Counted from the first letter of the stretch, positions 1 to 33,057 are shown. The stretch is DNA of 33,057 nt from a virus (IMGVR_UViG_2897328257_000006:1-33057), one strand, 5' to 3'. The notes: generated by a model from the sequence alone, not told the origin. Made by a program: numbers and translations.

Positions 1-1362
1 ATGTTTAAACCGGAACTCCTTTCCCCGGCGGGAACGCTGAAAAATATGCGTTACGCTTTCGCTTATGGCGCAGATGCTGTTTATGCGGGCCAGCCGCGTT
101 ATTCCCTGCGTGTGCGCAACAACGAATTCAACCACGAAAATCTTCAGCTCGGCATCAATGAAGCCCACGCGCTGGGGAAAAAGTTTTATGTCGTGGTCAA
201 CATTGCACCGCACAACGCCAAGCTGAAAACCTTTATCCGTGACCTGAAACCGGTGGTGGAAATGGGGCCGGATGCGCTGATTATGTCCGATCCAGGGCTG
301 ATTATGCTGGTGCGTGAGCACTTCCCTGAAATGCCGATCCACCTTTCGGTGCAGGCTAACGCCGTGAACTGGGCGACGGTGAAATTCTGGCAGCAAATGG
401 GCCTGACCCGCGTGATCCTCTCTCGCGAGCTGTCGCTGGAAGAGATTGAAGAGATCCGCAATCAGGTGCCGGATATGGAGATCGAGATCTTCGTTCACGG
501 CGCGCTGTGCATGGCCTACTCCGGTCGCTGCCTGCTCTCTGGCTATATCAACAAGCGCGACCCGAACCAGGGCACCTGCACCAACGCCTGCCGCTGGGAG
601 TACAACGTCCAGGAAGGGAAAGAAGATGATGTTGGCAACATCGTACACAAGTACGAGCCGATTCCGGTGCAAAATGTTGAGCCGACGCTGGGTATCGGCG
701 CACCAACCGACAAAGTGTTTATGATCGAAGAGGCCCAGCGTCCGGGCGAGTATATGACCGCGTTTGAAGATGAGCACGGCACTTACATCATGAACTCGAA
801 AGATCTGCGCGCCATCGCCCATGTAGAACGCCTGACCAAAATGGGCGTGCATTCGCTGAAAATCGAAGGTCGTACCAAATCTTTCTACTATTGTGCACGC
901 ACCGCACAGGTTTACCGCAAAGCTATCGATGACGCCGCTGCGGGAAAACCGTTCGATACCAGCCTGCTGGAAACTCTGGAAGGTCTGGCGCATCGTGGCT
1001 ATACCGAAGGTTTCCTGCGTCGTCATACTCACGACGATTATCAGAACTACGAATACGGTTATTCAGTTTCTGACCGCCAGCAGTTTGTTGGTGAGTTTAC
1101 CGGTGAGCGCAAGGGGGACCTCGCGGCGGTAGCGGTGAAAAATAAATTCTCCGTTGGCGACAGCCTTGAGCTGATGACGCCGCAAGGCAACATTAATTTT
1201 ACCCTTGAGCACATGGAAAACGCCAAAGGCGAAGCTATGCCGATAGCACCAGGCGATGGTTATACTGTGTGGCTCCCGGTCCCGCAGGATCTTGAGCTCA
1301 ATTACGCGCTGCTGATGCGTAATTTCTCCGGGGAAACCACGCGTAATCCCCACGGTAAGTGA
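1..1362 (+). CDS. yegQ: U32-family peptidase-like protein YegQ/TrhP (tRNA hydroxylation), complete 453 aa
   Basis: ORF starts at base 1 with ATG; protein MFKPELLSPAGTLKNMRYAFAYGADAVYAGQPRY... matches the E. coli YegQ sequence and length as I recall it; lies immediately upstream of cyaR as in E. coli K-12. Confidence 0.9.
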   Translation: MFKPELLSPAGTLKNMRYAFAYGADAVYAGQPRYSLRVRNNEFNHENLQLGINEAHALGKKFYVVVNIAPHNAKLKTFIRDLKPVVEMGPDALIMSDPGLIMLVREHFPEMPIHLSVQANAVNWATVKFWQQMGLTRVILSRELSLEEIEEIRNQVPDMEIEIFVHGALCMAYSGRCLLSGYINKRDPNQGTCTNACRWEYNVQEGKEDDVGNIVHKYEPIPVQNVEPTLGIGAPTDKVFMIEEAQRPGEYMTAFEDEHGTYIMNSKDLRAIAHVERLTKMGVHSLKIEGRTKSFYYCARTAQVYRKAIDDAAAGKPFDTSLLETLEGLAHRGYTEGFLRRHTHDDYQNYEYGYSVSDRQQFVGEFTGERKGDLAAVAVKNKFSVGDSLELMTPQGNINFTLEHMENAKGEAMPIAPGDGYTVWLPVPQDLELNYALLMRNFSGETTRNPHGK

Positions 1363-1394
1363 TTAATTTCGATTATTTTTCCCGGATGGAAAAT

Positions 1395-1446
1395 TCTTAG
1401 AAACCGATCACATACAGCTGCATTTATTAAGGTTATCATCCGTTTC
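1395..1446 (+). promoter_or_regulatory. Putative cyaR promoter (-10 TATCAT at 1434..1439; possible CRP half-site TCACA near 1408)
   Basis: TATCAT hexamer ends 7 nt before the inferred sRNA 5' end; cyaR is known to be CRP-activated; only one CRP half-site is clear by eye. Confidence 0.45.
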
Positions 1447-1533
1447 GCTGAAAAACATAACCCATAAAATGCTAGCTGTACCAGGAACCACCTCCTTAGC
1501 CTGTGTAATCTCCCTTACACGGGCTTATTTTTT
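1447..1533 (+). ncRNA. cyaR: CyaR (RyeE) Hfq-binding small RNA, 87 nt
   Basis: Sequence GCTGAAAAACATAACCCATAAAATGCTAGCTGTACCAGGAACCACCTCCTTAGCCTGTGTAATCTCCCTTACACGGGCTTATTTTTT matches remembered E. coli CyaR; terminator hairpin (CCTGTGTAA/TTACACGGG) plus T-run at the 3' end; correct position between yegQ and a P2 ogr gene. Confidence 0.85.
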
Positions 1534-1534
1534 A
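1507..1534. repeat. att core copy 1 (host cyaR 3' end / prophage ogr-proximal junction), AATCTCCCTTACACGGGCTTATTTTTTA
   Basis: Exact 28-bp direct repeat of 32555..32582; its reverse complement contains the remembered 27-bp P2 att core AAAAAATAAGCCCGTGTAAGGGAGATT. Confidence 0.9.
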
Positions 1535-1596
1535 CGCGTAATACAATGAAATAAAAGGATTTATTTCTGGTCACGTCCACACATTGACCACATCGA

Positions 1597-1621
1597 CAAA
1601 AAAGCCCCTCGACTGAGGGGC
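1597..1621 (-). terminator. Rho-independent terminator downstream of ogr
   Basis: Stem GCCCCTC/GAGGGGC (1604..1610 and 1615..1621) with 4-nt loop; on the minus strand it is followed by a run of T (complement of A-run 1597..1603), just past the ogr stop. Confidence 0.6.
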
Positions 1622-1634
1622 TTCCTGTATGTAA

Positions 1635-1853
1635 TTACATCCACATAATTTGCTGCCCTGACGGCAACGGGTGCGGTCTTACGGCGTGGACTTCTCCCGG
1701 CTTCACGATGTATCGCTGTACCGACTCATAAGTGATGAACGTGGCGCTGCAATTCACGTTCTGACACTGGTGATAACGCTCTTTTGTCGTGTCAGTGATA
1801 TAGCGGCTTGTACGCGCATGTGCGGCATGCTGGCATAAAGGACAATGAAACAT
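1635..1853 (-). CDS. ogr: Ogr late-gene transcriptional activator (C4 zinc finger), 72 aa
   Basis: MFHCPLCQHAAHARTSRYITDTTKERYHQCQNVNCSATF... matches P2 Ogr; internal ATG at 1853 chosen over the longer track ORF because it is preceded by a GGAAGAGG Shine-Dalgarno sequence and gives the known 72-aa length. Confidence 0.92.
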   Translation of the reverse strand: MFHCPLCQHAAHARTSRYITDTTKERYHQCQNVNCSATFITYESVQRYIVKPGEVHAVRPHPLPSGQQIMWM

Positions 1854-1934
1854 CGCGAGCACCTCTTCCGGTTTTGTTGATGGTGCCATTTTAGTTAATT
1901 TATCCTTATAAAACAAACAGATAAAATAAAAACA

Positions 1935-3098
1935 TCACTCATTATATTCTGTTTCGTACTCCACATCAGAAAGCCTGACCTCAAGCTCCAAGGACGTCGT
2001 GAAGCCGCTATTATTCAGAAAATGTGTCACCTTAGTGATTGTCCAGTCCTGCTCGTCTATGACGCGCTTAAAGCCTGACACTTTAACCGGTGTTTCCGTG
2101 TAAATATCTGCCCGACCGGTAGCCAGGCTGATGGAGAACTCCGCCACACCCCGTTGCAGTTTATCCCACTTCGCCTGAGCGGCGCGCATGGCCTGCGCTT
2201 TCGTGGCATATACCGTAGTCAGGGCAAAAACGTTGTCAGCCTCACCGGCCATGTATTCACCTTCGCGCGCTTCCGGTACTTTTGGCGCTTTCTTCTGCGT
2301 GACCGGTTTTGCTTTCGGGTGCTCCAGTGCGCGCAGGTGTTTTTCTTTCTTTTTGCGTTTCAGTTTTACCTTCTGCTTTTGTGGTTTCGGGTCTTTGGTG
2401 TGTAACCACTTTGCCGTTACGCCGGTGTAAGCTCCACGGTCAGCAATCGCAAAATGATGACGGTCGCCGTCGCTGCGGGTGATGGTAATCTGCGGGATTT
2501 TTTTACCACTGGCCGTCACCCCCTGCCCCGCTTTGAGAAACAGCAGTTTTCCCATTTTTACCGACACCTCGCCGCCGTTACGTTCTGCAAGACGGGTCAG
2601 AAATTTCGCATCAGACTCCTGCGACTGGTCGATGTGCGGGATTTTAATTCCGGCCAGTGACGGAGCGACACTGGCTTCCAGCCTGTTACGGGAGGCTATC
2701 GCCTCAACAATCGCACCGAGCGTGGTGTCATGCCATGAGCCTTCACGGCGGGAATTGAGCGTCCCGCGAAAATCTGCACTCCGGGCGCGGATGGTGACCA
2801 CATCCGGCGCGCCCCGGTGTTCAACCTCATCAACGGTGAATTTCCCTTTGCATACCAGGGCAAAACCTTTCCAGCCGATATACACCGTCAGGACAGCGCC
2901 ACGAACCGGCAGCCCAACCTGCCCGTCGGCATCGTTCAGTTCAATATCAAGCTGGTCAGCCTCAAAGCCCCGGTTATCCGTCAGAGTCATGCTCATCAGA
3001 CGGTCACTGATATTGCCGGTAATATCCCTGCTGTCGAGCATCAGCATGTAATCCGGCGTCAGCGTACTGCCTGCATCAAATGTCAGCGCATCCAGCAT
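1935..3098 (-). CDS. D: Tail protein D (387 aa)
   Basis: 387-aa ORF in the P2 position after ogr; length and N-terminus MLDALTFDAGSTLTPDYMLMLDSRDITG consistent with P2 gpD. Confidence 0.9.
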   Translation of the reverse strand: MLDALTFDAGSTLTPDYMLMLDSRDITGNISDRLMSMTLTDNRGFEADQLDIELNDADGQVGLPVRGAVLTVYIGWKGFALVCKGKFTVDEVEHRGAPDVVTIRARSADFRGTLNSRREGSWHDTTLGAIVEAIASRNRLEASVAPSLAGIKIPHIDQSQESDAKFLTRLAERNGGEVSVKMGKLLFLKAGQGVTASGKKIPQITITRSDGDRHHFAIADRGAYTGVTAKWLHTKDPKPQKQKVKLKRKKKEKHLRALEHPKAKPVTQKKAPKVPEAREGEYMAGEADNVFALTTVYATKAQAMRAAQAKWDKLQRGVAEFSISLATGRADIYTETPVKVSGFKRVIDEQDWTITKVTHFLNNSGFTTSLELEVRLSDVEYETEYNE

Positions 3099-3577
3099 TA
3101 TCCCGCCCCCGTCATACCCGTGAATCTGGTCGCCATACTGCCAGCCTTACCGATGAGCGATTCCGCCTGTTTACCGATATCGCCATAAAGCGCGGCCAGT
3201 GATTCATCAACGCGGGTGAGCGACAGCGTAAAATCAATTTTCCGGGGTGTGCCGTCTGCAAAGAAAATACTCCCTGTTTCACTCACCCTGCTGATGACAT
3301 ACATGCCGTAAATCATGCCGGTGCCATCCAGCAACGGCCACGCCCGGCCTTCCTCTGCCATCAGTCTGAGCGTGGTCATCGTCAGCTTCCCGCCGGTCAG
3401 TTCGGGATAAAGCACGCCGGCAAGCGTGATGTTTTCCTCACCCACACCGAGAAACTGAAAGGCATCCCGTTTACCGATACGGGAATTTGACGGCCAGCGA
3501 TAATCTGATTCACGCTGCATGGTCTGGTGTGGCAGCGTCTGGCGCATAAAAACAAACATACCTAACGCGAGCATCAT
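3098..3577 (-). CDS. U: Tail protein U (159 aa)
   Basis: 159-aa ORF in P2 synteny between T and D; overlaps the D start by one base. Confidence 0.88.
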   Translation of the reverse strand: MMLALGMFVFMRQTLPHQTMQRESDYRWPSNSRIGKRDAFQFLGVGEENITLAGVLYPELTGGKLTMTTLRLMAEEGRAWPLLDGTGMIYGMYVISRVSETGSIFFADGTPRKIDFTLSLTRVDESLAALYGDIGKQAESLIGKAGSMATRFTGMTGAG

Positions 3578-3591
3578 TTTTCGTCACCTCC

Positions 3592-5710
3592 TTAACCGTC
3601 ATGCATCATGCTGGCACGGGCGCGCGCACGTTTATCCCGCTCGTATTTTTCGAGCGCATCCTGTAACTGGCGGTCGAGCTGTGTCCCCGGCGCAGTACCG
3701 CCCGTCAGGCTGATGTGATATTCGTTTTTACTCTGGTCCACATAAGAGCGGCCAGCCGGTGCCGTAACTGGCTGATAAGCCTGATAGCCAGCATAAGAGC
3801 TGGTCGCCGGAATATAACCACCGGTGCCATACGTGGCGGCACGAGTTCTGGCGGCGGTCTGGTCAAGCGTGCCTGACTCTTTGTTGATGACGCCGAGTTT
3901 TTCCAGTACCCAGTCAATACCGCTGCGCAGTTTGTTGAACGCATTAAGCGGCAGCATCAGCGCGTCAGCCAGTGCCTGCCCGAACATGACGCCCGTGTCA
4001 CGGCAACGGTTCAGGGTGTCCTGGGTGGCTTTGACCGGGGCAATCAGGTTTTTAAACCACTGCCACGCGGCCTGTAACTTTTCACCCAGCCAGTCAAACA
4101 CCGGCTTAAGTGGCGTGAACAGCTCCCCCACCGGCGCAAATGCCGCTTTCAGCCCTTCAACCACACCGCCAAAGAATGCGCTGACAGGCTCCCAGTATTT
4201 ACGGATAAGTAACGCCCCGGCGACAATAGCGGCCACCACAGCCACAACCGGCCAGCTAATCGCCCCGATGGCGGTCATAACAGCACTGCCAACCGTCGTG
4301 AAAATTGCCCCCATTGCGCCTGCTGCCGCGATGATGGCATTAATGCCGGTGATAACCGGCCAGGCTACAAGACCAATGGCACCGATGATGCCAGTAAGCG
4401 CCAGTGCGCCACCGACAATGAGGCCGATGGTTGACGCCAGTGATTTGTTTTTCTGTATCCAGCCGTCGAGTTTTAACACATACTTTGTGGCCGTCTGCGT
4501 GAGCTTACGCAGCGCGCCTTCCTGCTGGTCAAACAGGTCAGTCCCCACCGCCTCATAAGCGGACTGAAACTCCTTAAAGTCACCGCCGAGGTTGTCCTGC
4601 ATGATATTTACCAGCTCGGCGGTCTTCCCGTCTGAGGCTTTAAACGCAGCGGTCAGTTTGTCCAGCTTTCCGGTTGAGGCGGCAGTCATCAGCACGGCGG
4701 CGGCTGAGCTGGCCTCCTCACCGAAAATAGTTTTCATGTATTCAGCCTGCTGGGCAGTACCGAGCCGGTTTTTCTCAAAACTGGCCTGCATTTCTTTCAG
4801 AATGGTAAATACTGGTCGGGTATTCCCTTTACTGTCTGAGGTTTTCACGCCAAGCTCTTTCAGTGCATCCCATGCTTTTCCCGTCGGTGCCTGCAGGCGG
4901 CTTAACACGGCACGGCTTCCCGTCCCCGCCATTGAACCGGTAATTTTTGCATCATGCAGTGCCCCGACCATTGCGGCGGTTTCTTCAATGCTGACACCGG
5001 CATTTTTTGCCACAGGTGCGGCATAGGTCAGCGCATCGCTCATGCCATCAAAATCGGCGGCGGTTTTGTTCATCGTCATGGAGAGAACATCCCCGATATG
5101 AGCGACCTTATCGTTTGAAAGCTGAAAGGCGGATTTCATCCCCATCAGCAGGGCGGCGTTTTCTTCCATCGTGCGACGGTTCGCCAGCGCCATATTCAGC
5201 GTGACCGGCGTTGCCGCCTGAATGGCATCAACATCCCCACCGGCTTTCGCAATAATAATCTGCGCACCGGCTGCATCATCTGCCGAGGCTGCGGTATTGT
5301 CGCCGAGCTGGCGCGCCTGCTTGCGTAGCGCGGCCATTTCGGCGGAGTCTTTTGCCACACCGAGCACAGCCTGCAATTCTGAGTTTTTCTGCGCAAACTC
5401 ATAACCGGGCATCAGCAACTTAACTCCGGCCATCGTTCCCGCCGCCGCAATCCCCACACCGGCAGCGCCCACTGAGGCCATATTTCCGGCCAGTTCCTTG
5501 CCTGCCTGATAACGCTGTTTGACTGCGTTAAGTTTTGCCTGTTGTGCACTGACACGCGCCAGTGCGTCACGCTGACGGTTAAGCTGTGCGGTGGTTTCAC
5601 TGATACGGTTTTTCAGTCCCTGCTCATCATGTGCAAGATTGCGGGTATTAATTCCCACAGCGGCCAGTTCCCGCTGCTGGCGTTTAACGGAGTCCGTCAG
5701 GCGGTTATAT
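3592..5710 (-). pseudogene. T: Tape-measure protein T, 5'-truncated (about 704 codons remain; no in-frame start outside the FI overlap)
   Basis: Long ORF with typical tape-measure composition (Ala/Gly-rich, hydrophobic segment IGLIVGGALALTGIIGAIGLVAWPVITGINAIIAAAGAMGA); the first 24 codons of the track ORF overlap FI coding sequence in another frame, and P2 gpT is 815 aa as I recall. Confidence 0.65.
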
Positions 5711-6580
5711 GTAGTTTTCAAAGAGGAACAGCGGGTCATCAGAGCAGGTACGGTTACCCCAGAAGCGGAAACCGTCACGGCGAATCAGCGTTGTGACACC
5801 TGACTCGTTCAACAGGTCAGCATCGGTGCCGGACTCCTGCAAATCCCAGAATACAGAGGCACTGATGCCGGTAACACCGTTTACCCCGACGTTGGACAGC
5901 GTTTTATGCCAGCCCTGCTCCTGGTCGATTTTAGCGCGCAGGCCCAGCGCACGGGCGGTGGCATACGCGGTGGCGGTGGTACTGGCGACCGTATCCCATG
6001 CGAGGAAATCCGGCCAGATGACCATCAGCTCACGCTGGCTGAAATTCTGACGGTAGGCTTTCACCTCGGAAATGGTTTTACAGTCCCATGCGCTGATATA
6101 CCCGAAAGCGCGCAGCTTCTGACAGACTGATGCCAGTGCAACAGCCACCTCTTTGGTGTCCAGTCCCGGCACACCGAGAATGCGAGGTTTAACACCGGTT
6201 ACCGACTCCGCCGCCAGCAGGGCTTTCAGTCCGGTGTACTGACCGTTTTCGTCGGTGGTGCCGATGATATTGGAAACGGTCTGCGCGAGTTTCGTTTCCT
6301 CGTCGTCGCCGGTGCCGTCTTCCACACGCACGACAACGGTGACCGGTTTTGACTGGTCGGCGATAGCCTGCAACGATGCCGCCAGCGTGCCTTTTTTACC
6401 GGCCTTTGCAATTGCGCTTTGCACATTGGTAATCAGCACCGGTTTATTGAGGGGGAAGGTTTCCGCATCCGCATCGCTGGCCGTGCAGACCATGCCGACA
6501 ATGGCAGTGGATACAGTGGAAATGACGCGGGTGCCGTCGTTAATCTCCAGCACCTGCACGCCGTGATGATAGTCACTCAT
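5705..6580 (-). pseudogene. FI: Tail sheath protein FI, 3'-truncated (291 aa versus about 396 aa in P2)
   Basis: N-terminus MSDYHHGVQVLEINDGTRVISTVSTAIVGMV... matches P2 FI; reading frame ends ...LFLFENYI-stop at 5705, where P2 FI continues; good RBS GGAG upstream of the ATG at 6580. Confidence 0.7.
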
Positions 6581-6684
6581 CCGTTTAACTCCGTGGTTAA
6601 TGGGTGCAACTATTTTCTGTTGGGCAGTGCATGAGACGCTATTTGACCTGGCTGGTCAGTGGATGAAACAACAGATAAAGAAAA

Positions 6685-6703
6685 GGCGGGCAATTCGCCC
6701 GCC
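6685..6703. terminator. GC-rich hairpin GGCGGGC-AATT-CGCCCGCC upstream of FI, flanked by an A-run; possible terminator or boundary element
   Basis: Perfect 7/8-bp GC stem with 4-nt loop seen directly; lies between the late tail operon start and the cargo region; function not established. Confidence 0.35.
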
Positions 6704-6798
6704 TGTCCTGATTTGTACTCACTCATTTCCCAACTGGCAACTTACATAGCCAAAACGCTATCAAATCTGACAGTCTGCTTTGAGCGAGAAGCGGAAGT

Positions 6799-7065
6799 AT
6801 GAAACTTGTTCTCACCACCGATGAAGCATTACAAACAATGCAGTTAGTTTATCAACGGGCAGGATCAGGGCGTACTCTCAAGCGGTTTAAGATTGATAAC
6901 CTCAGGTACATTCATCTTGCCACGTTTCATATAGCGTATTTGCGACAGAGTTCATGTGAAGAAACACCGACTACGAGGATGATATTCATGTTGTATTGTT
7001 CGGGAAATCACTTCTTCATATGGAACCCTCATCACACTTACAAAACCATTATTAACATAGCTTAA
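6799..7065 (+). CDS. Hypothetical 88-aa protein (orphan ORF at the edge of the cargo hotspot)
   Basis: Only ORF of 60 aa or more on either strand in 6600..7300; weak RBS-like GGAAG just upstream; no recognisable motif. Confidence 0.25.
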   Translation: MKLVLTTDEALQTMQLVYQRAGSGRTLKRFKIDNLRYIHLATFHIAYLRQSSCEETPTTRMIFMLYCSGNHFFIWNPHHTYKTIINIA

Positions 7066-7079
7066 GTGTTAATCAAAAT

Positions 7080-7305
7080 TGAGCCATTCACATTACATTA
7101 GGTAAGGCATCTTACTAAAAATATTGTAATGTTTTGTTTTTAAAGATAAAGATTTCAGGTTGAAAACCAAAAATTTTTAGTTAAAAATATTTATGGTGTA
7201 TGTAAAAAATGATAAGGTAGTGATAAGACATAAGTTTGTAAAACACATGTTAAATTTCAATGCTGATGAAAAAGCTTAGCGTTAATCAAAACAGGAGCAA
7301 GAAGA
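7080..7305 (+). promoter_or_regulatory. AT-rich putative promoter region for the cargo operon (e.g. TTGAAA at 7160..7165)
   Basis: About 200 bp of very AT-rich sequence immediately upstream of a strong RBS (AGGAG 7293..7297); several -35/-10-like hexamers, none decisive. Confidence 0.4.
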
Positions 7306-8136
7306 TTGAAAGTTATTAGCTTAATCAATATGAAAGGTGGCGTTGGTAAGTCAACATTGGCTACCAATATTGCTAATCATCTTTCAGATAAACTTGGGCA
7401 AAAAATATTATTAATAGATATCGACCCACAATTTAACGCAACGCAATGTGTAATGGATACAAGCAAATATGTTGCACATATGAAAAGCGGAGGCGATAGC
7501 ATATGTGATATTTTTTATAGTTCAAAAATTCGACTATCTACAATGACTGGTCCTTTAGTTAACACACCTAAAGAATTAGCCGATATAACACCAATTCAAT
7601 TAAATGATAATTTTCACATTGTTCCCGGAAGCCTTGGGCTATATAAAATTGAAATGAAACCAGGAGAAGGGATAGAAAACAAGCTTAGACGCTTTCTTAA
7701 AATCCATGAAAATGACTATGATTATGTCATAATTGATACCCCACCAACCCCATCAGTTTGGATGTCCAGCGCATTAATTGCATCTGATTATTACCTCATT
7801 CCAGCCAAACCCGATCCTCTTTCGATCACTGGTATCGATCTATTAGATAGCATTATAAATGAGAAGAGAGAAAATTTCGATCTTAAGATTGAATGTGCGG
7901 GCATAGTTTTTAATATGGTTGAAGGTAATAGTAATTTATATGAGGAAAGTCTTCGTTACTTCAATAATCAAAAACGTTGGCGTAATAAGATCTTTAAATC
8001 ATATTTGAGCAAACGTACTGAGTTGGCAAGAAATCAAACAAGAGGCTTATTTATTAACAATTTAACGGATGAGGATATGAAGTTTTCGCTGTCTAAAATT
8101 ACTGACGAACTTCTCTCTAGAGTAGGTGACTTATGA
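7306..8136 (+). CDS. ParA/MinD/Soj-family P-loop ATPase (276 aa), cargo gene 1
   Basis: Deviant Walker A KGGVGKST near the N-terminus, DIDPQ motif, Walker B-like YVIIDTPP; TTG start preceded by AGGAG at 8-nt spacing; AT-rich relative to the phage backbone. Confidence 0.8.
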   Translation: MKVISLINMKGGVGKSTLATNIANHLSDKLGQKILLIDIDPQFNATQCVMDTSKYVAHMKSGGDSICDIFYSSKIRLSTMTGPLVNTPKELADITPIQLNDNFHIVPGSLGLYKIEMKPGEGIENKLRRFLKIHENDYDYVIIDTPPTPSVWMSSALIASDYYLIPAKPDPLSITGIDLLDSIINEKRENFDLKIECAGIVFNMVEGNSNLYEESLRYFNNQKRWRNKIFKSYLSKRTELARNQTRGLFINNLTDEDMKFSLSKITDELLSRVGDL

Positions 8137-8639
8137 CTGACAAAAAAAATAACTCAAAAGAAATTAAGCAACTGTTAAACTTTTTAGAGGAGTTTTCCTT
8201 TATTTCAAAAAAATTATCAAGAATCAACTTTATTGAATTACTTCAAGATAGTTATACTGATAATTTAGAAGTTAACGAAAGAAATTCAAAGTCCAAAAAA
8301 AATGATATTAAAGGTTTCCTTGTTGGGTATCTTCCGAGGATTTTATTAGACAAAGATCTCTTCCAAAAAAATAAAGATATAGATGATTTTGCACGCATGT
8401 TAGGTATCGAAATCAGCAGGCCTGAAAAAAGATCTAGAGAGGAAATGATCGGCATAATCGTGTGTGACGTTCACGAGAAAAACTCATCCGATTTAGGTAA
8501 GGCTTATAATATTATCAATTCAATGTCAAATAACCCTCAAGTTTTGAGTAGAATAAAAGAGAGGAAGAACCTTTCTAGCGCTCAAAATGAGATATATGAC
8601 TGGAATGAAGTTATAAAAGATATATTCAATAAGGACTAA
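8133..8639 (+). CDS. Hypothetical charged (Lys/Glu/Asn-rich) 168-aa protein, cargo gene 2
   Basis: ATG overlaps the stop of gene 1 (ATGA), preceded by AGGTGA; no motif recognisable by eye. Confidence 0.7.
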   Translation: MTDKKNNSKEIKQLLNFLEEFSFISKKLSRINFIELLQDSYTDNLEVNERNSKSKKNDIKGFLVGYLPRILLDKDLFQKNKDIDDFARMLGIEISRPEKRSREEMIGIIVCDVHEKNSSDLGKAYNIINSMSNNPQVLSRIKERKNLSSAQNEIYDWNEVIKDIFNKD

Positions 8640-8641
8640 CA

Positions 8642-9337
8642 ATGTCGAGAGAAGTAAACAGCGATTTCACTGAGTTAGTTACTTATTTCTCTGAATATAA
8701 ATTAAAAAATGTTTTCGAGAATATTAACTCAAGAGGGAAAATAAGCATGATACATAAGAGATATTATTCTTTTATGTGCCTTGTTTACTGTTTGTATCAT
8801 TTCTCCAAGGAGAAAATAGACGCCAACTCATTGGAGCGATTGCAAGAAGCTTCATCTGACCTTGGTACAGCTATGTTTATGGTTATAAATGGTGCATACA
8901 AACCAGCAAATCTAATGATGCGAAGTTATATTGAAAATTCTTTAAAATCAATCGGTTGCTTACTAGATCCTTCAATACTTGAAGAAAAATCATTGTTTAA
9001 GGTAATTGAACAAACTGGGGAACATCCTGTCTTCAAAAAAAATCCTCTACTACATGAAACTTTAAAAGCTGAATACTCTTCGTTATGCAGTCACGTACAT
9101 ACAGCTACTGTAAAAGAAATGGCTCACATAAAAGCTTTAAATGTTTTTCCCGAAATAGACTTGGTTAAAATAGATAATATTTCGAAGGTGATTGATAAGG
9201 TGGTTAAGACTATGATATCAACTATCATAAGAATTTTTCCTGATGTTTTCTTTTCCTTTGCACCTGAGTATCGAGAAAAAATCCTCCTTAGCTTAACCTC
9301 TGCACAACGAGCCTCACTTCATTCCTTAAGTGATTAA
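8642..9337 (+). CDS. Hypothetical 231-aa protein, cargo gene 3
   Basis: Starts 3 nt after the gene 2 stop with AAGGA RBS; same AT-rich composition; no motif recognisable by eye. Confidence 0.7.
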   Translation: MSREVNSDFTELVTYFSEYKLKNVFENINSRGKISMIHKRYYSFMCLVYCLYHFSKEKIDANSLERLQEASSDLGTAMFMVINGAYKPANLMMRSYIENSLKSIGCLLDPSILEEKSLFKVIEQTGEHPVFKKNPLLHETLKAEYSSLCSHVHTATVKEMAHIKALNVFPEIDLVKIDNISKVIDKVVKTMISTIIRIFPDVFFSFAPEYREKILLSLTSAQRASLHSLSD

Positions 9338-9354
9338 CTAACAAGTATGACATA

Positions 9355-9380
9355 AAAACTATCCTATTGTGATAGTTTTT
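9355..9380 (+). terminator. Weak AT-rich hairpin plus T-run downstream of cargo gene 3
   Basis: AAAACTATC-CTATTGT-GATAGTTTT inverted repeat followed by T; stem is AT-rich, so strength is uncertain. Confidence 0.4.
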
Positions 9381-9618
9381 ATGTTCATTAAGATGACTAT
9401 ATCAGGAATTATTGCCGAATTTTAATTTTCATATTGATTTTACTATCTCTCACCAACTCTTGTAAGTATCCTTCCGCCACAAGCGGACCATGTGCATTTA
9501 AATATCTGACCTAACGTGCCGTAACGCCGCAATGTCCGCTTCTGGCACAGAGCGGACTGTCAGATTAGGCTTTACTCTGTGCCATAGATATGTAAGCTCC
9601 CACTAGAGTTCATACAAG

Positions 9619-10146
9619 TTATTGCGGCATTTCCGGCCATTCAGGATTTGCAGGATCCACACGACTGACCAGAACGCTGTAGCGCTCCCATCTTTCCAGT
9701 CGGCTACGCTCCTCATCTGTTGCCATATTCAGCCTGACAGCACGCTCTAGCGGCAAAATCACGGATTCAGCATCTGCAAGAAGTCTGGCTTTCCTGTTTT
9801 CTGCCTGCTGTTGCAATTCCTCTGCCGTATAAATTCGTTTGATCACTGTGCCATCCTTAAACATCCAGTTCCCTGAAATGTCCGCCCGTCGATTAGCAGT
9901 AATATCCGGCACTTCAACAACACTTAATCCATCTGGTCTGATAGCTGTCACATCCTTTTCCACATAGCGGATAATATTATCTTTGTCGTACGCTATTTTT
10001 ATCGTGTCATCAGCAAAATACTTTTGTTCTTCGTACCAGTTCTTACCATCTTCTGAAAAAAACCAGACAACATCAAAGTCCTTTGTCAATTGATATTGTT
10101 CAACCGTTTTTGGATTACCTGCCGTTATATTTATCAAATGCTGCAT
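9619..10146 (-). CDS. G: Tail fibre assembly protein G (175 aa)
   Basis: 175-aa ORF directly downstream of H, as in P2; C-terminal ...[27 protein letters not shown] is typical of the tail-fibre chaperone family. Confidence 0.88.
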
Positions 10147-10149
10147 AAA

Positions 10150-12044
10150 TTATACCTGCGCCACGTTGTACCACGTCCCGTTAATGTATTTCTGAACCGG
10201 TCTGTAATATACGCCACCAATGTTATCGGCAGAGTTTGAGCCGGTATCCTGAACAATAATGCCGGTATATACACACCCGGACGGTGCCTGATGTGTCCAT
10301 GTCATGCCATTGTTCGCAGGTTTGTATGTGGCGGCACCACCAAGCCGGATATCCCGGACATAGCGGGAGTCAAAATTGCTGAAATTTGATGGTATCACCT
10401 GCCCGGTAACCCGTAGTGCATCAGACTTAAGCGTCATCAGGTCTTTTGTTGTGCTGCCAGACCTGATGCGCCATTTAAAATATTCATTGCCATTATCACC
10501 AGTTTCAAACCACATGTATGAGTCAGAATCAGCATCTGAATCATTTTTAAATCCAATTTTCGCCCAGTCAGTGTTTCTTTCCCAAATCAGGAAGGCATCA
10601 TTGATAAATTTTATGCTGCCTGACATGCTTCCGCCTGATAATGCCAGAGCAAGAATATCCGCAGGTGTTGGCTTTCGTGATGTTGTATAAAACTCAGACC
10701 AGTCAGCCTCAAATCCATACCCATCACGTGCCGACCTGTAAAAAATCCCCCTGTTTTTATAATCCACAAGAAACTGCATTGCCGGACAACTTCCCTCACC
10801 CGTGTAAAAATGCAGCACCATTTTTGATGCTCCGCCATCCTGTGCACAATAAGCACCACTATCCCAGTTCCATCCTACCGCTTTATTATTTGCAACCGTA
10901 TTTCCTGTTTTCCCTAATGCAAAAGCCGGTTGCTTATTTTTCGTATTGTAGTCGCGTCGCCAGCCCGGCGCATAATCAGCTCCGTGATTGATATACGTGA
11001 ATTGCGCACTGGTGGTACCACCACCGCTTGATGTACTCGGAGTGGTCACACGAATGGTCATTGCAGCTTTAACGCCCATAACCTCAATCACGCAACCTGC
11101 AAGATGAATAGTCCCACAGTCAGTATCGGTAATAATTTTGTTATTACCGTATGACCAGGAACACTTGCACATCCAGTAGGGATGATTAAAGGCTCCCTGA
11201 GACTCTAGCCAGTCAATAAACTGAGCGGTTGTCCAGTTTCCGGCTTCAGTGCTCAAAGCACCGCTATAAGCACGACAGGCACCGATATTTTTCGTGAAAG
11301 TATCCTTTCCCGGAATATCCGCACCGTTCTGATCTTTCTGAAGACGTTTTTCAGCATTGTCATAGGCAGACTTCACCGCTTTTGGTGTTGCAGCCAGCGT
11401 TTCAGAATCGCTGTTGATNNNNNNNNNNNGTTAGCAAGGTCATACGCGGCCTTTACCGCTTTTGGTGTTGCGGCGAACGTTTCAGACGTGCTGTTGGTCG
11501 CACTGCTTAACTGAGTAAAACCTTTGGCGGTCAGCGAGGCGTCAGGGTGACGTCGTGACTGTTCATGTTCTGCAATTTTGTCATCAACGTAATCCTGCGT
11601 TGCCATCACCGTTGTGGTGTCAATGGTCAGCTCCACTGAGGCCACACTGCTGACGATGATGACCATGCGGCAGGTCTGCGAACGCCCTGAGCCTTCGGCA
11701 AGGGCTGGCTTATAACTTTCGGCCATGTTCGCCACGGCAATTAGCGTTCCCGCATCATCGTACAGGCCAAGTTCACGCATCCAGAAACCGCCCACCTCCG
11801 GCGGAATAACCAGCTCTGCGATAATATAATTACTGTTTCGTTTGTCCTGGCTGATTTTGTTCAGCGCATGTCGCCAGACTTCGTGGATAAGCCCGGTCTG
11901 TCCGGCATCCGGGACAGGCAATTTACCACCGCCATCCCCGACGGCCATCGTGGTAATGTTGACCTTCCGCCCTCCCGGTGCGGTTGCCGCTGCCAGCTTT
12001 GCTGCACCGGCAGTGGTGATAACGGTTCTGAATTTTGTGCTCAT
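10150..12044 (-). CDS. H: Tail fibre protein H, interrupted by an 11-N assembly gap at 11419..11429
   Basis: Two ORF segments (11373..12044 and 10150..11376) carry tail-fibre repeat motifs (TPKAVKAAYDLA / KSAYDNAEKRL) on either side of the N-run; combined length is close to P2 gpH (669 aa). Confidence 0.8.
11419..11429. other. Assembly gap (run of N)
   Basis: 11 consecutive N characters in the sequence. Confidence 0.99.
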
Positions 12045-18003: not shown

Positions 18004-18747
18004 TTAACTGGCTTTCTTTTTCGGGCGTCCACGTTTTGCCGGTGTCGCACTCCGGGTCTTACGCGGGGCGCGGGTGGCCGCTTTTGGCTGCGGCTCCGGC
18101 TTCGGTTTCAGCTCCCGCTCCAGTCGTTCAATCTCTTTTTTGACGCCTGCCTGACAGTCGAGCTGTGTCGCACGTTGCAGGTGCGCCAGTGCCCCTGCGG
18201 CATCACCAGCGTCACGCAGAAACAGACCGGTGATTTTGTGCAGCTTTGCGCGCACTTCATCAGGCATGTCTGCCGTGGCGGTCAGTTCAAGGGTCTCCGT
18301 CAGCAGGCGGGGTTCCACGGATTCACCGGCAGCGTGAGCGCGCATGGCCGCAAGCGCCACCTCCTCGGTGAACATGTACGGCGGGGTACGGCGGTGTTTA
18401 CCCGGCATGGTCAGACCGTACTTCAGGGCATAACGGGCAATCTCCAGCGCACCGGCAATATCGCCGGTATCCAGACGCCACAGCATGACCGTCATCAGAA
18501 TGTCATCCTGTGCACCTTTGCCCTGCTCCAGCACACCGTTCACCCACGGCAACCAGAACGGCAGCAGTTCGCGCTTTTTCGCGGCCTTAAGCTCTTTTGA
18601 ATAAATTGCTTTCAGTGTGCGCTGGTCTGCGGCGAGCTTAACCAGCATCTGCTCATAGACAGTTGCATGTCGCAGCGGGGCGGCGTCCCGCTGCGCGGTC
18701 ATCGCTGCCGAGACCCGCATCATGTGGCGCTGTGCGGGACTCGTCAT
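18004..18747 (-). CDS. M: Terminase small subunit M (247 aa)
   Basis: 247-aa ORF in P2 synteny after N; basic C-terminal tail. Confidence 0.88.
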   Translation of the reverse strand: MTSPAQRHMMRVSAAMTAQRDAAPLRHATVYEQMLVKLAADQRTLKAIYSKELKAAKKRELLPFWLPWVNGVLEQGKGAQDDILMTVMLWRLDTGDIAGALEIARYALKYGLTMPGKHRRTPPYMFTEEVALAAMRAHAAGESVEPRLLTETLELTATADMPDEVRAKLHKITGLFLRDAGDAAGALAHLQRATQLDCQAGVKKEIERLERELKPKPEPQPKAATRAPRKTRSATPAKRGRPKKKAS

Positions 18748-23886: not shown

Positions 23887-23905
23887 GTGCTTTCCCCGCC
23901 TCGCC
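23887..23905. other. cos site (19-nt cohesive end sequence)
   Basis: GTGCTTTCCCCGCCTCGCC is the reverse complement of the remembered P2 cohesive end GGCGAGGCGGGGAAAGCAC; lies between Q and the cargo locus. Confidence 0.8.
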
Positions 23906-24022: not shown

Positions 24023-25216
24023 TTAAATTCTGCATCCATCGGTTTGAAAATGTGATCCGTTTTTCGAATTCAAACTCAACTCTGTTTGACTCTTTTGAAC
24101 ATTAATAGTTTTACCAGTAAGGACATCCAAAACCCCTGCAGCAACAGCCTGCGCCAATTTACAAGGCACAGCATTCCCTATCTGACGCCAAATTGACGAA
24201 TTTTTCCCCACAAAGACATAATTACTCGGGAATGTTTGAATCAAAAGAGCCTCATCTATCGTTAGTCGACGTAAACGACTAGGTACATCGTGCATATCTT
24301 TTGGCTCACCACCATTCATTAGATGATTATGATAAGTCTCAACATAACTTGTTGAGCCATCATAAAGGTGTTCTTCATCAATAATTGGTGTCCTATTCCC
24401 CCCCATAGAAGCAGCTATAGTTGAAGCATACCCATTCGGGTTAATTGGTCTTCCCTGCCCGTTAAACATCATTCCCGCGTAAGGTGACTTCCGTAATACT
24501 GGCTTAGCAGCATTTGTAATCCTTGCATTACAGACTCTTGAATTGTTTGGATTACCCGCTCGCCCTAAAGGCCGAATAATCTCACCAACTGTGGGCGAAA
24601 GATATTGGTATTTTTTTATCGCCACCTCAACTCGTTTCACATCATTTTCGGAACGAAACCCTATAAAAAACATACGTTCCCTATTCTGAGGAACGCCAAA
24701 ATCTTTAGAATTCAGCACCAGCAAGGCTGAACGATAGCCTGACTTTTCAGCCATCTTAAACAGTTCACACCTAACTGGTTCAAATTTGGACAACTGTGCT
24801 AAAGCCTTAACATTCTCCATAACAAAGCATTCTGGTTGAATTATATCCACCGCCCGCATGAATGACATAACCAGCTTACTACGTGGATCATGAGCGTCCA
24901 TTTTCCCTGCCACAGAAAATCCTTGGCATGGAGGCCCACCAAAAACACAACCTATATTTTTCAGCCCAGACAATTCACTTAGCATCTCATCAATATCACC
25001 ACAAAAAACAGGTGATTCATGATTAAGCTTAAATGTATCACATGCATCCTTATCTATATCATTGGCCCAAACTGTTCGGAACCCGGCATTAGAGAAACCG
25101 ACATCCATCCCTCCTGCCCCAGTAAATAAGCTCACCGCTGAAATTTTGTTCACTTCTTTAGCACCAATTATTCGATTTTGGAATAAAACCAATGATAGGT
25201 AAGGATCGACACACAA
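24023..25216 (-). CDS. DNA (cytosine-5) methyltransferase of a type II R-M system; probable true start GTG at 25153 (376 aa)
   Basis: m5C-MTase motifs seen in order: FTGAGG (I), PPCQGFS (IV), ENV (VI), QNRER (VIII), GNAVP (X). The track ORF uses a TTG that overlaps the divergent controller ORF; the GTG at 25153 gives MNKISAVSLFTGAGG. Confidence 0.85.
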   Translation of the reverse strand: MCVDPYLSLVLFQNRIIGAKEVNKISAVSLFTGAGGMDVGFSNAGFRTVWANDIDKDACDTFKLNHESPVFCGDIDEMLSELSGLKNIGCVFGGPPCQGFSVAGKMDAHDPRSKLVMSFMRAVDIIQPECFVMENVKALAQLSKFEPVRCELFKMAEKSGYRSALLVLNSKDFGVPQNRERMFFIGFRSENDVKRVEVAIKKYQYLSPTVGEIIRPLGRAGNPNNSRVCNARITNAAKPVLRKSPYAGMMFNGQGRPINPNGYASTIAASMGGNRTPIIDEEHLYDGSTSYVETYHNHLMNGGEPKDMHDVPSRLRRLTIDEALLIQTFPSNYVFVGKNSSIWRQIGNAVPCKLAQAVAAGVLDVLTGKTINVQKSQTELSLNSKNGSHFQTDGCRI

Positions 25217-25506
25217 TCAATCACCTTCTAAACCACATGGCAAAACGACAACCAACTATACATGATCATAGATACAGGTGCCTAGTCCAGCTTCTCACCA
25301 AACTACGCAAAGAAGCTTCTCTTTCGCAGTCAGAATTGGCCATTTTTCTAGGATTATCACAATCAGATATATCTAAAATCGAAAGCTTTGAAAGGCGATT
25401 AGATGCTTTAGAACTATTTGAATTATTAGAGGTGGTTGCAAGCCGATTAGGTCTACCAATGGATATCTTACTAAAGGACACCTATGAAAGTATTAGTAAA
25501 TCATGA
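25192..25506 (+). CDS. Controller (C) protein, XRE-type helix-turn-helix regulator (89-104 aa depending on start)
   Basis: HTH-like segment LSQSELAIFLGLSQSDISKIE; divergent from the MTase and overlapping the start of the downstream endonuclease ORF, the usual C-R arrangement. Alternative start ATG at 25237. Confidence 0.65.
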   Translation: MIGKDRHTINHLLNHMAKRQPTIHDHRYRCLVQLLTKLRKEASLSQSELAIFLGLSQSDISKIESFERRLDALELFELLEVVASRLGLPMDILLKDTYESISKS

Positions 25507-26539
25507 GCAAGCCTATAATGTAATTATAAATGCAATCAACGATGCAAAAAAATTAACTGATTACAAAACAAATAATCAATGGGTCTCCATTCAAAATGTA
25601 ATTTTAGGCACCCACCTTACATACAGATATATACTTATTACTGGTTTACTTGCTAAAGCAACAGACCCTAGAGTAAACCCTCTGGCTTTACAAGCTAATG
25701 CCCCCGTAGACGGAGCCTATGATGCAAGAAGTTTATGTCATTCGGTAATAGTAGGCAAAGTAGAAGGCCCATTTTTAGAGGGTAAGTTAGGCGCATCAAA
25801 TGAGCCATTTCTAAATAAACCAGCTCGTTACATGCTCCACTCCTCTGATAACCCTGTGCGCAGAGGAAATGATAAGGTTTTACAACAACTTTCAATTGAT
25901 ATATTACATGCAGCAACAACCCAAATCTTAGCTTATGAAATGCTTGTTATTGCATTATATTTTACCCTACAGCGAACCAATAGAGTTATAACGCCGAACT
26001 CAATTAATTTTGATTTCCATAAGATTATTTATAATATTATATCTCATCCTTGTGATGGAGAAACATGCGCGATTGCTGCCGCAATTTCGTTACACTTATT
26101 AGGTGAACAAAGAGGATGGATAATAAAAGCACATCCCGTCAATCAGGCCGGTAGCTCCTCAAAAGAGATACTGGACATAGATGTATATCATGATGATATA
26201 GTTTTCCTTTCTATAGAAGTGAAAGACAAACCATTTAATTATCAAGATGTTAATCACGCCGTTTCAAAAGCATCTGCATCCGGGATTTCAAAAGTTATCT
26301 TCCTTAAAGGGCCAAGAGCAACAAACTTAGATATTGATGAGTCTATTGCGATTGAGAACGCTGCGACAAAAGGTGTTTCACTAAGCTTTAGTGACGTCAT
26401 GACATTCACAACAACATGTTATGCGTTATCGCCACTATTAAGTAATGACAGAATAATAGATTTCATAAATAACACTTTAAAAGACATCAGAGCTAAAGAT
26501 AGCACTATAGAATACATACAATCCATATTTAAAAATTAA
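25484..26539 (+). CDS. Putative type II restriction endonuclease (351 aa)
   Basis: Position downstream of and overlapping the C gene, opposite the MTase; candidate PD-(D/E)xK-like element in DIDVYHDDIVFLSIEVKDK; AAGGA RBS; AT-rich. Enzymatic identity is inferred from context, not proven. Confidence 0.6.
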   Translation: MKVLVNHEQAYNVIINAINDAKKLTDYKTNNQWVSIQNVILGTHLTYRYILITGLLAKATDPRVNPLALQANAPVDGAYDARSLCHSVIVGKVEGPFLEGKLGASNEPFLNKPARYMLHSSDNPVRRGNDKVLQQLSIDILHAATTQILAYEMLVIALYFTLQRTNRVITPNSINFDFHKIIYNIISHPCDGETCAIAAAISLHLLGEQRGWIIKAHPVNQAGSSSKEILDIDVYHDDIVFLSIEVKDKPFNYQDVNHAVSKASASGISKVIFLKGPRATNLDIDESIAIENAATKGVSLSFSDVMTFTTTCYALSPLLSNDRIIDFINNTLKDIRAKDSTIEYIQSIFKN

Positions 26540-32554: not shown

Positions 32555-32582
32555 AATCTCCCTTACACGGGCTTATTTTTTA
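32555..32582. repeat. att core copy 2 (prophage int-proximal junction / host flank)
   Basis: Exact 28-bp repeat of 1507..1534. Confidence 0.9.
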
Positions 32583-32739
32583 TGCATAAGCCCTATCCCT
32601 GGTCACCGTCTTCCATTGACCACATCGATAGAATCTCCCTTCATAGCACGATGCCTTTCACGTAACGGCATCGTGCTCGCACAGGTTCCGGCTAAGCACA
32701 ACCAGAACGCGCATGTTTGACGCTTACCAAAAAATATTC

Positions 32740-33057
32740 TCACTCTCCACATTTGAATGTCAGACGAGCGACGCCATGTAATCCTGCACCTTCTGTCTTC
32801 AGGTCAACTATCTGCATTTTTTTGCCCTGAGTAACACAGAAATGGGCTGCATCATTTTTTACTATATTTTCTGCACCAGATATTCTGCCCCTGGCTAAAG
32901 AAGCTTCGGCTTCGGTGTAGTATTGGTTATCGAGTTTACGCTGAATATTACTTTTATATGCAAGACCAAATTTACCGATACTTGTCTCATCATTATGCAC
33001 AGCACAACCAGACACAATAAAAATACTAATTAATGATATAGCAGCTATCTTTTTCAT
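32740..33057 (-). CDS. yegR: Small lipoprotein (105 aa), probably host gene yegR
   Basis: Start codon at the last bases of the window; signal peptide with lipobox (IFIVSGC); size and position relative to yegQ and cyaR match yegR of E. coli K-12, but I do not recall the yegR sequence itself. Confidence 0.5.
   Translation of the reverse strand: MKKIAAISLISIFIVSGCAVHNDETSIGKFGLAYKSNIQRKLDNQYYTEAEASLARGRISGAENIVKNDAAHFCVTQGKKMQIVDLKTEGAGLHGVARLTFKCGE

Follow-up and report, generated by a model that had tools for sequence, protein, structure and literature searches.

The window analysed here, by which we mean the whole stretch of 33,057 nucleotides, holds a phage P2 prophage inserted in an E. coli chromosome and bounded by two exact 27-nt att cores. 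The left chromosomal flank carries trhP (yegQ) followed by the small RNA gene cyaR, and the right flank carries yegR. The prophage sits in the 3' end of cyaR; the ogr-proximal att core shares sequence with this end, shows where the chromosome was entered, and regenerates the end of the gene. Much of what characterises a P2-type prophage is present: the attP core is duplicated, with 27-mers at both ends, the 19-nt cos sequence is exact, and a collinear gene set that includes the repressor C can be followed by tblastn, with 35 of 42 proteins matching in P2 order. What is lacking is a complete FI-FII-E/E'-T-U-D tail operon, 1,657 bp of which are gone (Table 1).

Table 1. Features of the prophage, its ends and the neighbouring host gene, in window coordinates
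Feature	Position	Strand	Evidence or remark
cyaR, host sRNA gene	1445..1530	+	Rfam RF00112, 100.7 bits, full length; K-12 annotation of the locus
ogr-proximal prophage end, exact 27-nt P2 attP core	1507..1533	.	equals P2 24356-24382
ogr, late-gene activator, intact	1638..1853	-	tblastn 72/72 aa, 100%
Tail gene D, intact	1935..3098	-	tblastn 387/387 aa, 98.5%
Tail gene U, intact	3098..3577	-	tblastn 159/159 aa, 100%
T remnant (T'), tape measure	3592..5709	-	codons 111-815 plus stop; Pfam PF10145 kept
FI', truncated sheath gene	5705..6580	-	291 codons: 290 native plus Ile, then TAA
Deletion junction	5710..5710	.	shared nucleotide aligns to P2 18522 (FI nt 871) and P2 20179 (T nt 330)
pF late-promoter activator-site region, upstream of FI	6645..6680	-	alignment; P2 feature table
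cos, 19-nt cohesive-end sequence, exact	23887..23905	-	
int-proximal prophage end, second exact att core copy, 27 nt	32555..32581	.	

A tblastn inventory of 42 P2 proteins against the window gives a fuller view of what has been kept. Matches were obtained for 35 of the 42, and 32 are essentially full length at 92-100% amino-acid identity, with G at 75%. Outside the deleted segment, the essential genes found at full length are Q, P, O, N, M, L, X, Y, K, R, S, V, W, J, I, G, U and D as well as ogr, int, C, cox, B and A; among these, the proteins of C, cox, ogr, U, K, Y and O match P2 at 100% and int at 99.4% identity. FI, T and H are matched only in part, H being interrupted solely by an 11-N scaffold gap, and for FII and E the P2 proteins found no match anywhere in the window. 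With this gene content the prophage should still be able to confer immunity, excise, replicate, build and fill heads, package DNA and lyse the host, and the deleted genome, at ~31.2 kb, still has ~95% of the intact size. The promoter of the tail operon, pF, also looks intact by alignment, since over the activator site it does not differ from fiAA91-ss, a phage that forms plaques.

FI, FII, E, E+E' and T are all given as essential tail genes in the P2 GenBank record (AF063097). By that annotation, the prophage is missing genes without which no virion can be produced. Since these genes are listed as essential, the expectation that no contractile tail is made is a sound one. Judged by its gene content, the prophage would be unable to assemble a contractile tail or to yield infectious particles on its own.

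The junction between FI and T

When the tail operon is aligned by blastn to the intact phages fiAA91-ss and P22H1, two collinear blocks of 96-97% identity abut at window position 5710, which corresponds to positions 3811 and 5468 of the fiAA91-ss locus (L001). The alignment of the FI-FII-E-T region to P2 itself fixes the same breakpoint, with the blocks abutting at 18522 and 20179. The deletion is a single clean event of 1,657 bp, with 1 nt of microhomology at the junction, and this measurement falls within the 1.6-1.7 kb that an earlier note on this DNA had estimated for the loss of the FI C-terminus, FII, E/E' and about 110 codons of T. FI codon 291 begins at P2 18522 and T codon 110 ends at P2 20179; what has been removed is FI codons 291-396, all of FII, all of E/E' and T codons 1-110. 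The same note had described sheath gene FI as fused to the middle of T, a description that has to be corrected, for the breakpoint lies only 13% into that gene (codon 110 of 815). A megablast search of window positions 3400-6800 against 50,697 phage records returned 90 near-full matches at ~96-97% identity; in every one of the top phage matches the 3.4-kb query was laid out in two pieces over ~5.05 kb of phage DNA, and among the genes in the phage interval were ones labelled tail tube, gpE+E' and tape measure.

On the coding strand the sequence reads ...GAA AAC TAC up to the junction and ATA TAA beyond it. The translation of FI' accordingly ends ...DPLFLFENY-I-stop, in agreement with the earlier reading of an ORF that stays P2-like through DPLFLFENY and terminates after 291 codons, and it is without the sheath C-terminal domain PF17482 (Pfam), which occupies residues 280-382 of full-length FI. 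T codons 111-815 continue after the junction in the +1 frame relative to FI'. Since 1,657 cannot be divided by three, a fusion protein is ruled out, and an in-frame FI-T product was rejected as a candidate on the same grounds, T lying in the +1 frame and FI' stopping 2 codons past the junction. The protein searches place the break similarly, with FI matching over residues 1-290 only and T from ~107 to 815, where the T match before residue 111 is a chance extension beyond the DNA breakpoint.

The T-frame ORF as a whole spans 3592..5778 on the minus strand and overlaps FI' by 74 nt in a different frame (+1), much as had been noted before. The companion claim that this frame has room for neither a start codon nor a ribosome-binding site survives by half. 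Two in-frame starts exist, an ATG at 5739 and a GTG at 5778, both within the translated FI' frame; reading the sequence upstream of either codon revealed no Shine-Dalgarno motif at a usable distance. The PGAP call for the T remnant begins at the ATG and gives a protein of 715 aa, consisting of 10 novel residues (MTRCSSLKTT) and T residues 111-815. Expression of T' is probably poor, and it is irrelevant when the tube is missing.

The missing tail genes have not been relocated within the window. Relaxed searches at E<=10, with the deleted DNA (a 1,656-nt query, blastn at word size 7) and with the five lost protein pieces (FI C-terminus, FII, E, E' extension and T N-terminus, tblastn), gave chance matches only, which ruled out relocation as a candidate and agrees with the earlier statement that no ORF in the window encodes the tail tube or E/E'.

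As to how the segment was lost, the longest k-mer common to both endpoints, within 60 nt of either in intact P2, is 7 nt long and out of register. The 1 nt of microhomology and the absence of repeats at the endpoints point to illegitimate recombination as the probable mechanism, rather than homologous recombination between repeats. A repeat-mediated deletion was therefore rejected; a 17-nt exact repeat is shared by FI (5815-5831) and the E region in intact phages, but it lies away from the breakpoints.

Carriers of the junction and rival explanations

A 401-nt query centred on the junction is matched in 1,647 of 5,426 complete E. coli genomes as two separate halves, and only one of the 1,647, NZ_CP075640.1, matches it end to end (401/401 identity). 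This record is the complete circular chromosome of strain S19-141, from human stool in Zurich, and in RefSeq its sheath gene is already a pseudogene ('incomplete; missing C-terminus') beside a 715-aa tape-measure protein. Over 25.7 kb the window and S19-141 are separated by 10 substitutions and one 1-bp indel (window 1889). The exact junction 40-mer, which is a convenient clonal marker for the carrier lineage, was recovered from four further independent assemblies (Logan DRR589133, GCA_038701855.1, GCA_019548375.1 and GCA_043556435.1), and these four junction loci share the same trhP/ParDE flank. The exact 715-aa T', with its junction-specific N-terminus, is indexed in 78 blocks of a gene-position collection, and exact look-up places T' on 38 contigs and FI' on 42.

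Among carriers the differences number 0-8 per 10 kb, and two SNP sub-groups can be distinguished; the deletion therefore predates some diversification, which gives a lower bound on its age. The shared site, flanks and SNP pattern indicate a deletion that would have occurred once and been inherited through some diversification, with vertical transmission of the deleted prophage in an E. coli lineage. A search of phage records and complete E. coli genomes for an intact sibling with the same ParA cargo found none; S19-141, itself a carrier of the deletion, was alone in covering more than 80% of the query. A literature search on strain S19-141 and on P2-like tail-operon deletions found nothing relevant.

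The composition of the sub-groups can be given in more detail. The window goes with locus L008 and S19-141 with loci L005-L007, the groups being separated at positions 1824, 1889, 8953 and others; the difference at 1889 lies in a run of Ts, just upstream of ogr, whose length varies by 1 bp.

We regard it as very probable that a single illegitimate-recombination deletion, fixed by drift or hitch-hiking in one clone, has produced a tail-defective and otherwise intact P2 prophage. A P2 prophage with the P2 immunity repressor would have integrated at the cyaR/trhP-yegR attachment site, and one illegitimate-recombination event would have removed the 1,657 bp within the late tail operon, so that FI codon 290 is now followed by T codon 111, read in the +1 frame. 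The predicted consequences are a sheath that stops two codons later with its C-terminal domain gone, loss of the tube gene and of both tail-assembly chaperone products, and a tape-measure remnant left to do without a proper translation start. Everything else appears intact: the repressor, integrase and Cox, the genes for replication, capsid, terminase, lysis and baseplate, the cos site and, probably, the fibre gene. Fixation of the deleted prophage would most likely have come about by drift or hitch-hiking, and the tail deletion would be an early step of decay of the kind that produced PR-X of K-12 at the same site.

Other explanations have to be weighed against this one. The simplest is an artefact, in which the real genome has an intact FI-FII-E-T segment and an assembler collapsed or skipped 1.66 kb; the earlier note had kept this caveat open, and the window is indeed a draft scaffold interrupted by a gap of 11 Ns (11419-11429). 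We attach almost no probability to it. The gap is separately explained by a tandem repeat in gene H, the endpoints offer no collapse-prone repeat, their longest common k-mer being the out-of-register 7-mer, and the junction is not confined to a single assembly: it recurs at 100% identity in a complete chromosome and in four other assemblies (different submitters, and Logan), with junction-specific proteins on 38-42 contigs. On these comparisons misassembly is effectively refuted, the evidence coming from other assemblies, of near-identical strains. A different possibility is that the deletion is real and was favoured by selection, converting an armed P2 into a permanent chromosomal island that locks in P2 immunity and two cargo modules, SacI-type R-M and ParA, with no further spread. 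Such domestication would be in keeping with a prophage in which everything but the tail segment is intact, both cargo loci included, with an allele that persists in two SNP sub-groups and dozens of isolates, and with the known role of P2 variable loci as reservoirs of anti-phage systems (PMC9122126). We nevertheless think it improbable, since lysis, replication and excision genes remain and the host could still be killed. Since P2 is not inducible and seldom induces spontaneously, any benefit would be tiny. Moreover, just 1 of the 1,647 complete genomes that gave a P2-like match has the allele, as would be expected if a neutral event had happened a single time in one clone, and there is no recurrence at independent breakpoints.

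The intactness of cos, terminase, capsid, int, cox and att, together with a genome of ~95% of the intact size, would also suit a helper-dependent defective phage, the deleted genome spreading horizontally after being packaged and tailed by a co-resident or superinfecting P2-like helper. This we find scarcely credible, because all five of the five carriers examined share site, flanks and near-identical sequence, and because the junction occurs in no phage record among the best matches. S19-141, in addition, has one P2-like place only and no second P2-like prophage at megablast sensitivity; a complementing, divergent contractile-tail prophage in carriers is accordingly excluded at that sensitivity only, and from S19-141. 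More speculative is a satellite-like variant of the domestication reading, in which tail-less, DNA-filled heads might be completed by the tails of incoming P2-like phages.

Cargo loci and tail-fibre genes

The prophage carries two cargo loci, both of which are more interesting than the tail deletion. At the P2 Z/fun locus, within a flanking variable region of ~6800-9600, lies a three-gene cargo (window 7306-9337, plus strand) that encodes a ParA-family ATPase of 276 aa and two proteins of 168 and 231 aa (PHROG 12497 and 12265, both 'unknown'). In PADLOC this cargo drew a weak P-loop hit and no system match, and its DNA is absent from all 50,697 phage records and present, among complete E. coli genomes, only in S19-141. 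It is possibly an uncharacterised anti-phage or partition-like module. The other cargo, a type II R-M locus at window 24023-26539, takes the place that old and tin have in P2, between cos/Q and gene A. It consists of a C5 cytosine methyltransferase (minus strand), a small HTH controller-like protein (plus) and a SacI-family endonuclease (plus; PADLOC REase_II, 830 bits), and Rousset et al. 2022 (PMC9122126) describe the old/tin position as an anti-phage hotspot.

Across G (9619-10146) and the H C-terminus (~10150-10650) amino-acid identity to P2 is 48-75%, as against 92-100% elsewhere, and this divergence is the usual host-range cassette exchange of P2-like phages. The sole N run of the window, 11 Ns, falls inside H (~10150-12044, minus strand), and the integrity of H cannot be read across it in the window. 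In S19-141 the gap is filled by 195 nt (65 codons, in frame) belonging to a tandem repeat with a unit of ~45 aa (...KGLVQLSSATNSTSETLAATPKAVKAAYDLANGKYTAQDATTAR...), a repeat that explains a short-read gap at this point. S19-141 further has a TAG stop in place of CAG at H codon 66 (Q66; PGAP 'internal stop'), where the window keeps the sense codon (11849, G vs A). The stop is either a sequencing error in S19-141 or a further lesion that one sub-lineage acquired later.

A last observation concerns how the records are laid out. By coordinate arithmetic, position 1 of NZ_CP075640.1 is window 28903, the start codon of gene A (minus strand), and in many other complete genomes the P2 tail genes lie ~20-24 kb from the start of the record. 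A plausible reading is that software which rotates assemblies takes P2 gene A for the 'replication initiator' at which to start, which would be a database artefact and not biology.

Decay among P2-like elements

The prophage belongs to the defective prophages, a well-known class; P2, the FETUD operon and its genes are textbook material, and nothing here is new in kind. The tail deletion opens no new biological question, and the sheath pseudogene had already been flagged in RefSeq. Its practical consequence is that the prophage should be scored as defective despite a near-complete appearance (~31 kb, with att, int, cos, capsid and lysis intact), on which prophage-prediction tools would probably call it intact. 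Prophage decay and domestication are reportedly pervasive in enterobacteria, as Bobay, Touchon and Rocha are said to have described in PNAS in 2014.

The closest relatives are P2 (AF063097), fiAA91-ss, P22H1 and R18C of the genus Peduovirus, which have the same gene order as the prophage and tail operon DNA that is 96-97% identical. The P2 repressor C, Cox, Ogr, the 27-nt att core and the 19-nt cos are identical in the prophage. Relative to P2, the prophage is without the 1,657 bp of the FETUD operon and without orf30 and orf91, and it carries other cargo at Z/fun and old/tin.

P2 tail-gene mutants make heads but no functional tails. The classical conditional-lethal mutants in FI, FII, E and T affect the same genes as the deletion, and the expected phenotype is the same, heads without functional tails. 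Those mutants, however, are laboratory point mutants in single genes, whereas here a natural multi-gene deletion has been fixed in a wild lineage. R-type tailocins, too, are P2-related elements reduced by gene loss, but they keep the sheath, tube, tape measure and baseplate and lose head and packaging functions, and the loss seen here is the opposite. A tailocin reading of the prophage was rejected for this reason, the tube being absent and the sheath truncated, with Q, P, O, N, M and L intact.

A further comparison is with the annotated cryptic prophage PR-X of K-12 (ogrK and the D-fragment yegZ), which occupies the same site, beside cyaR/trhP and yegR. K-12 MG1655 aligns to window positions 1-2149 (99.3%) and 32564-33057 (96%), and the homology stops inside gene D. 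We found no paper on the origin of the remnant in the literature on ogrK/yegZ, and the remnant was verified from the MG1655 record. Of PR-X, ogr and 219 bp of D are all that is left, whereas the prophage described here has lost only 1.66 kb and retains all its other genes. On this alignment PR-X is a P2 prophage cut down by an internal deletion of ~30 kb, and the window shows a much earlier stage of decay. The prophage can thus be seen as a dated-looking early stage of a decay path that ends, at the identical site, in PR-X of K-12.
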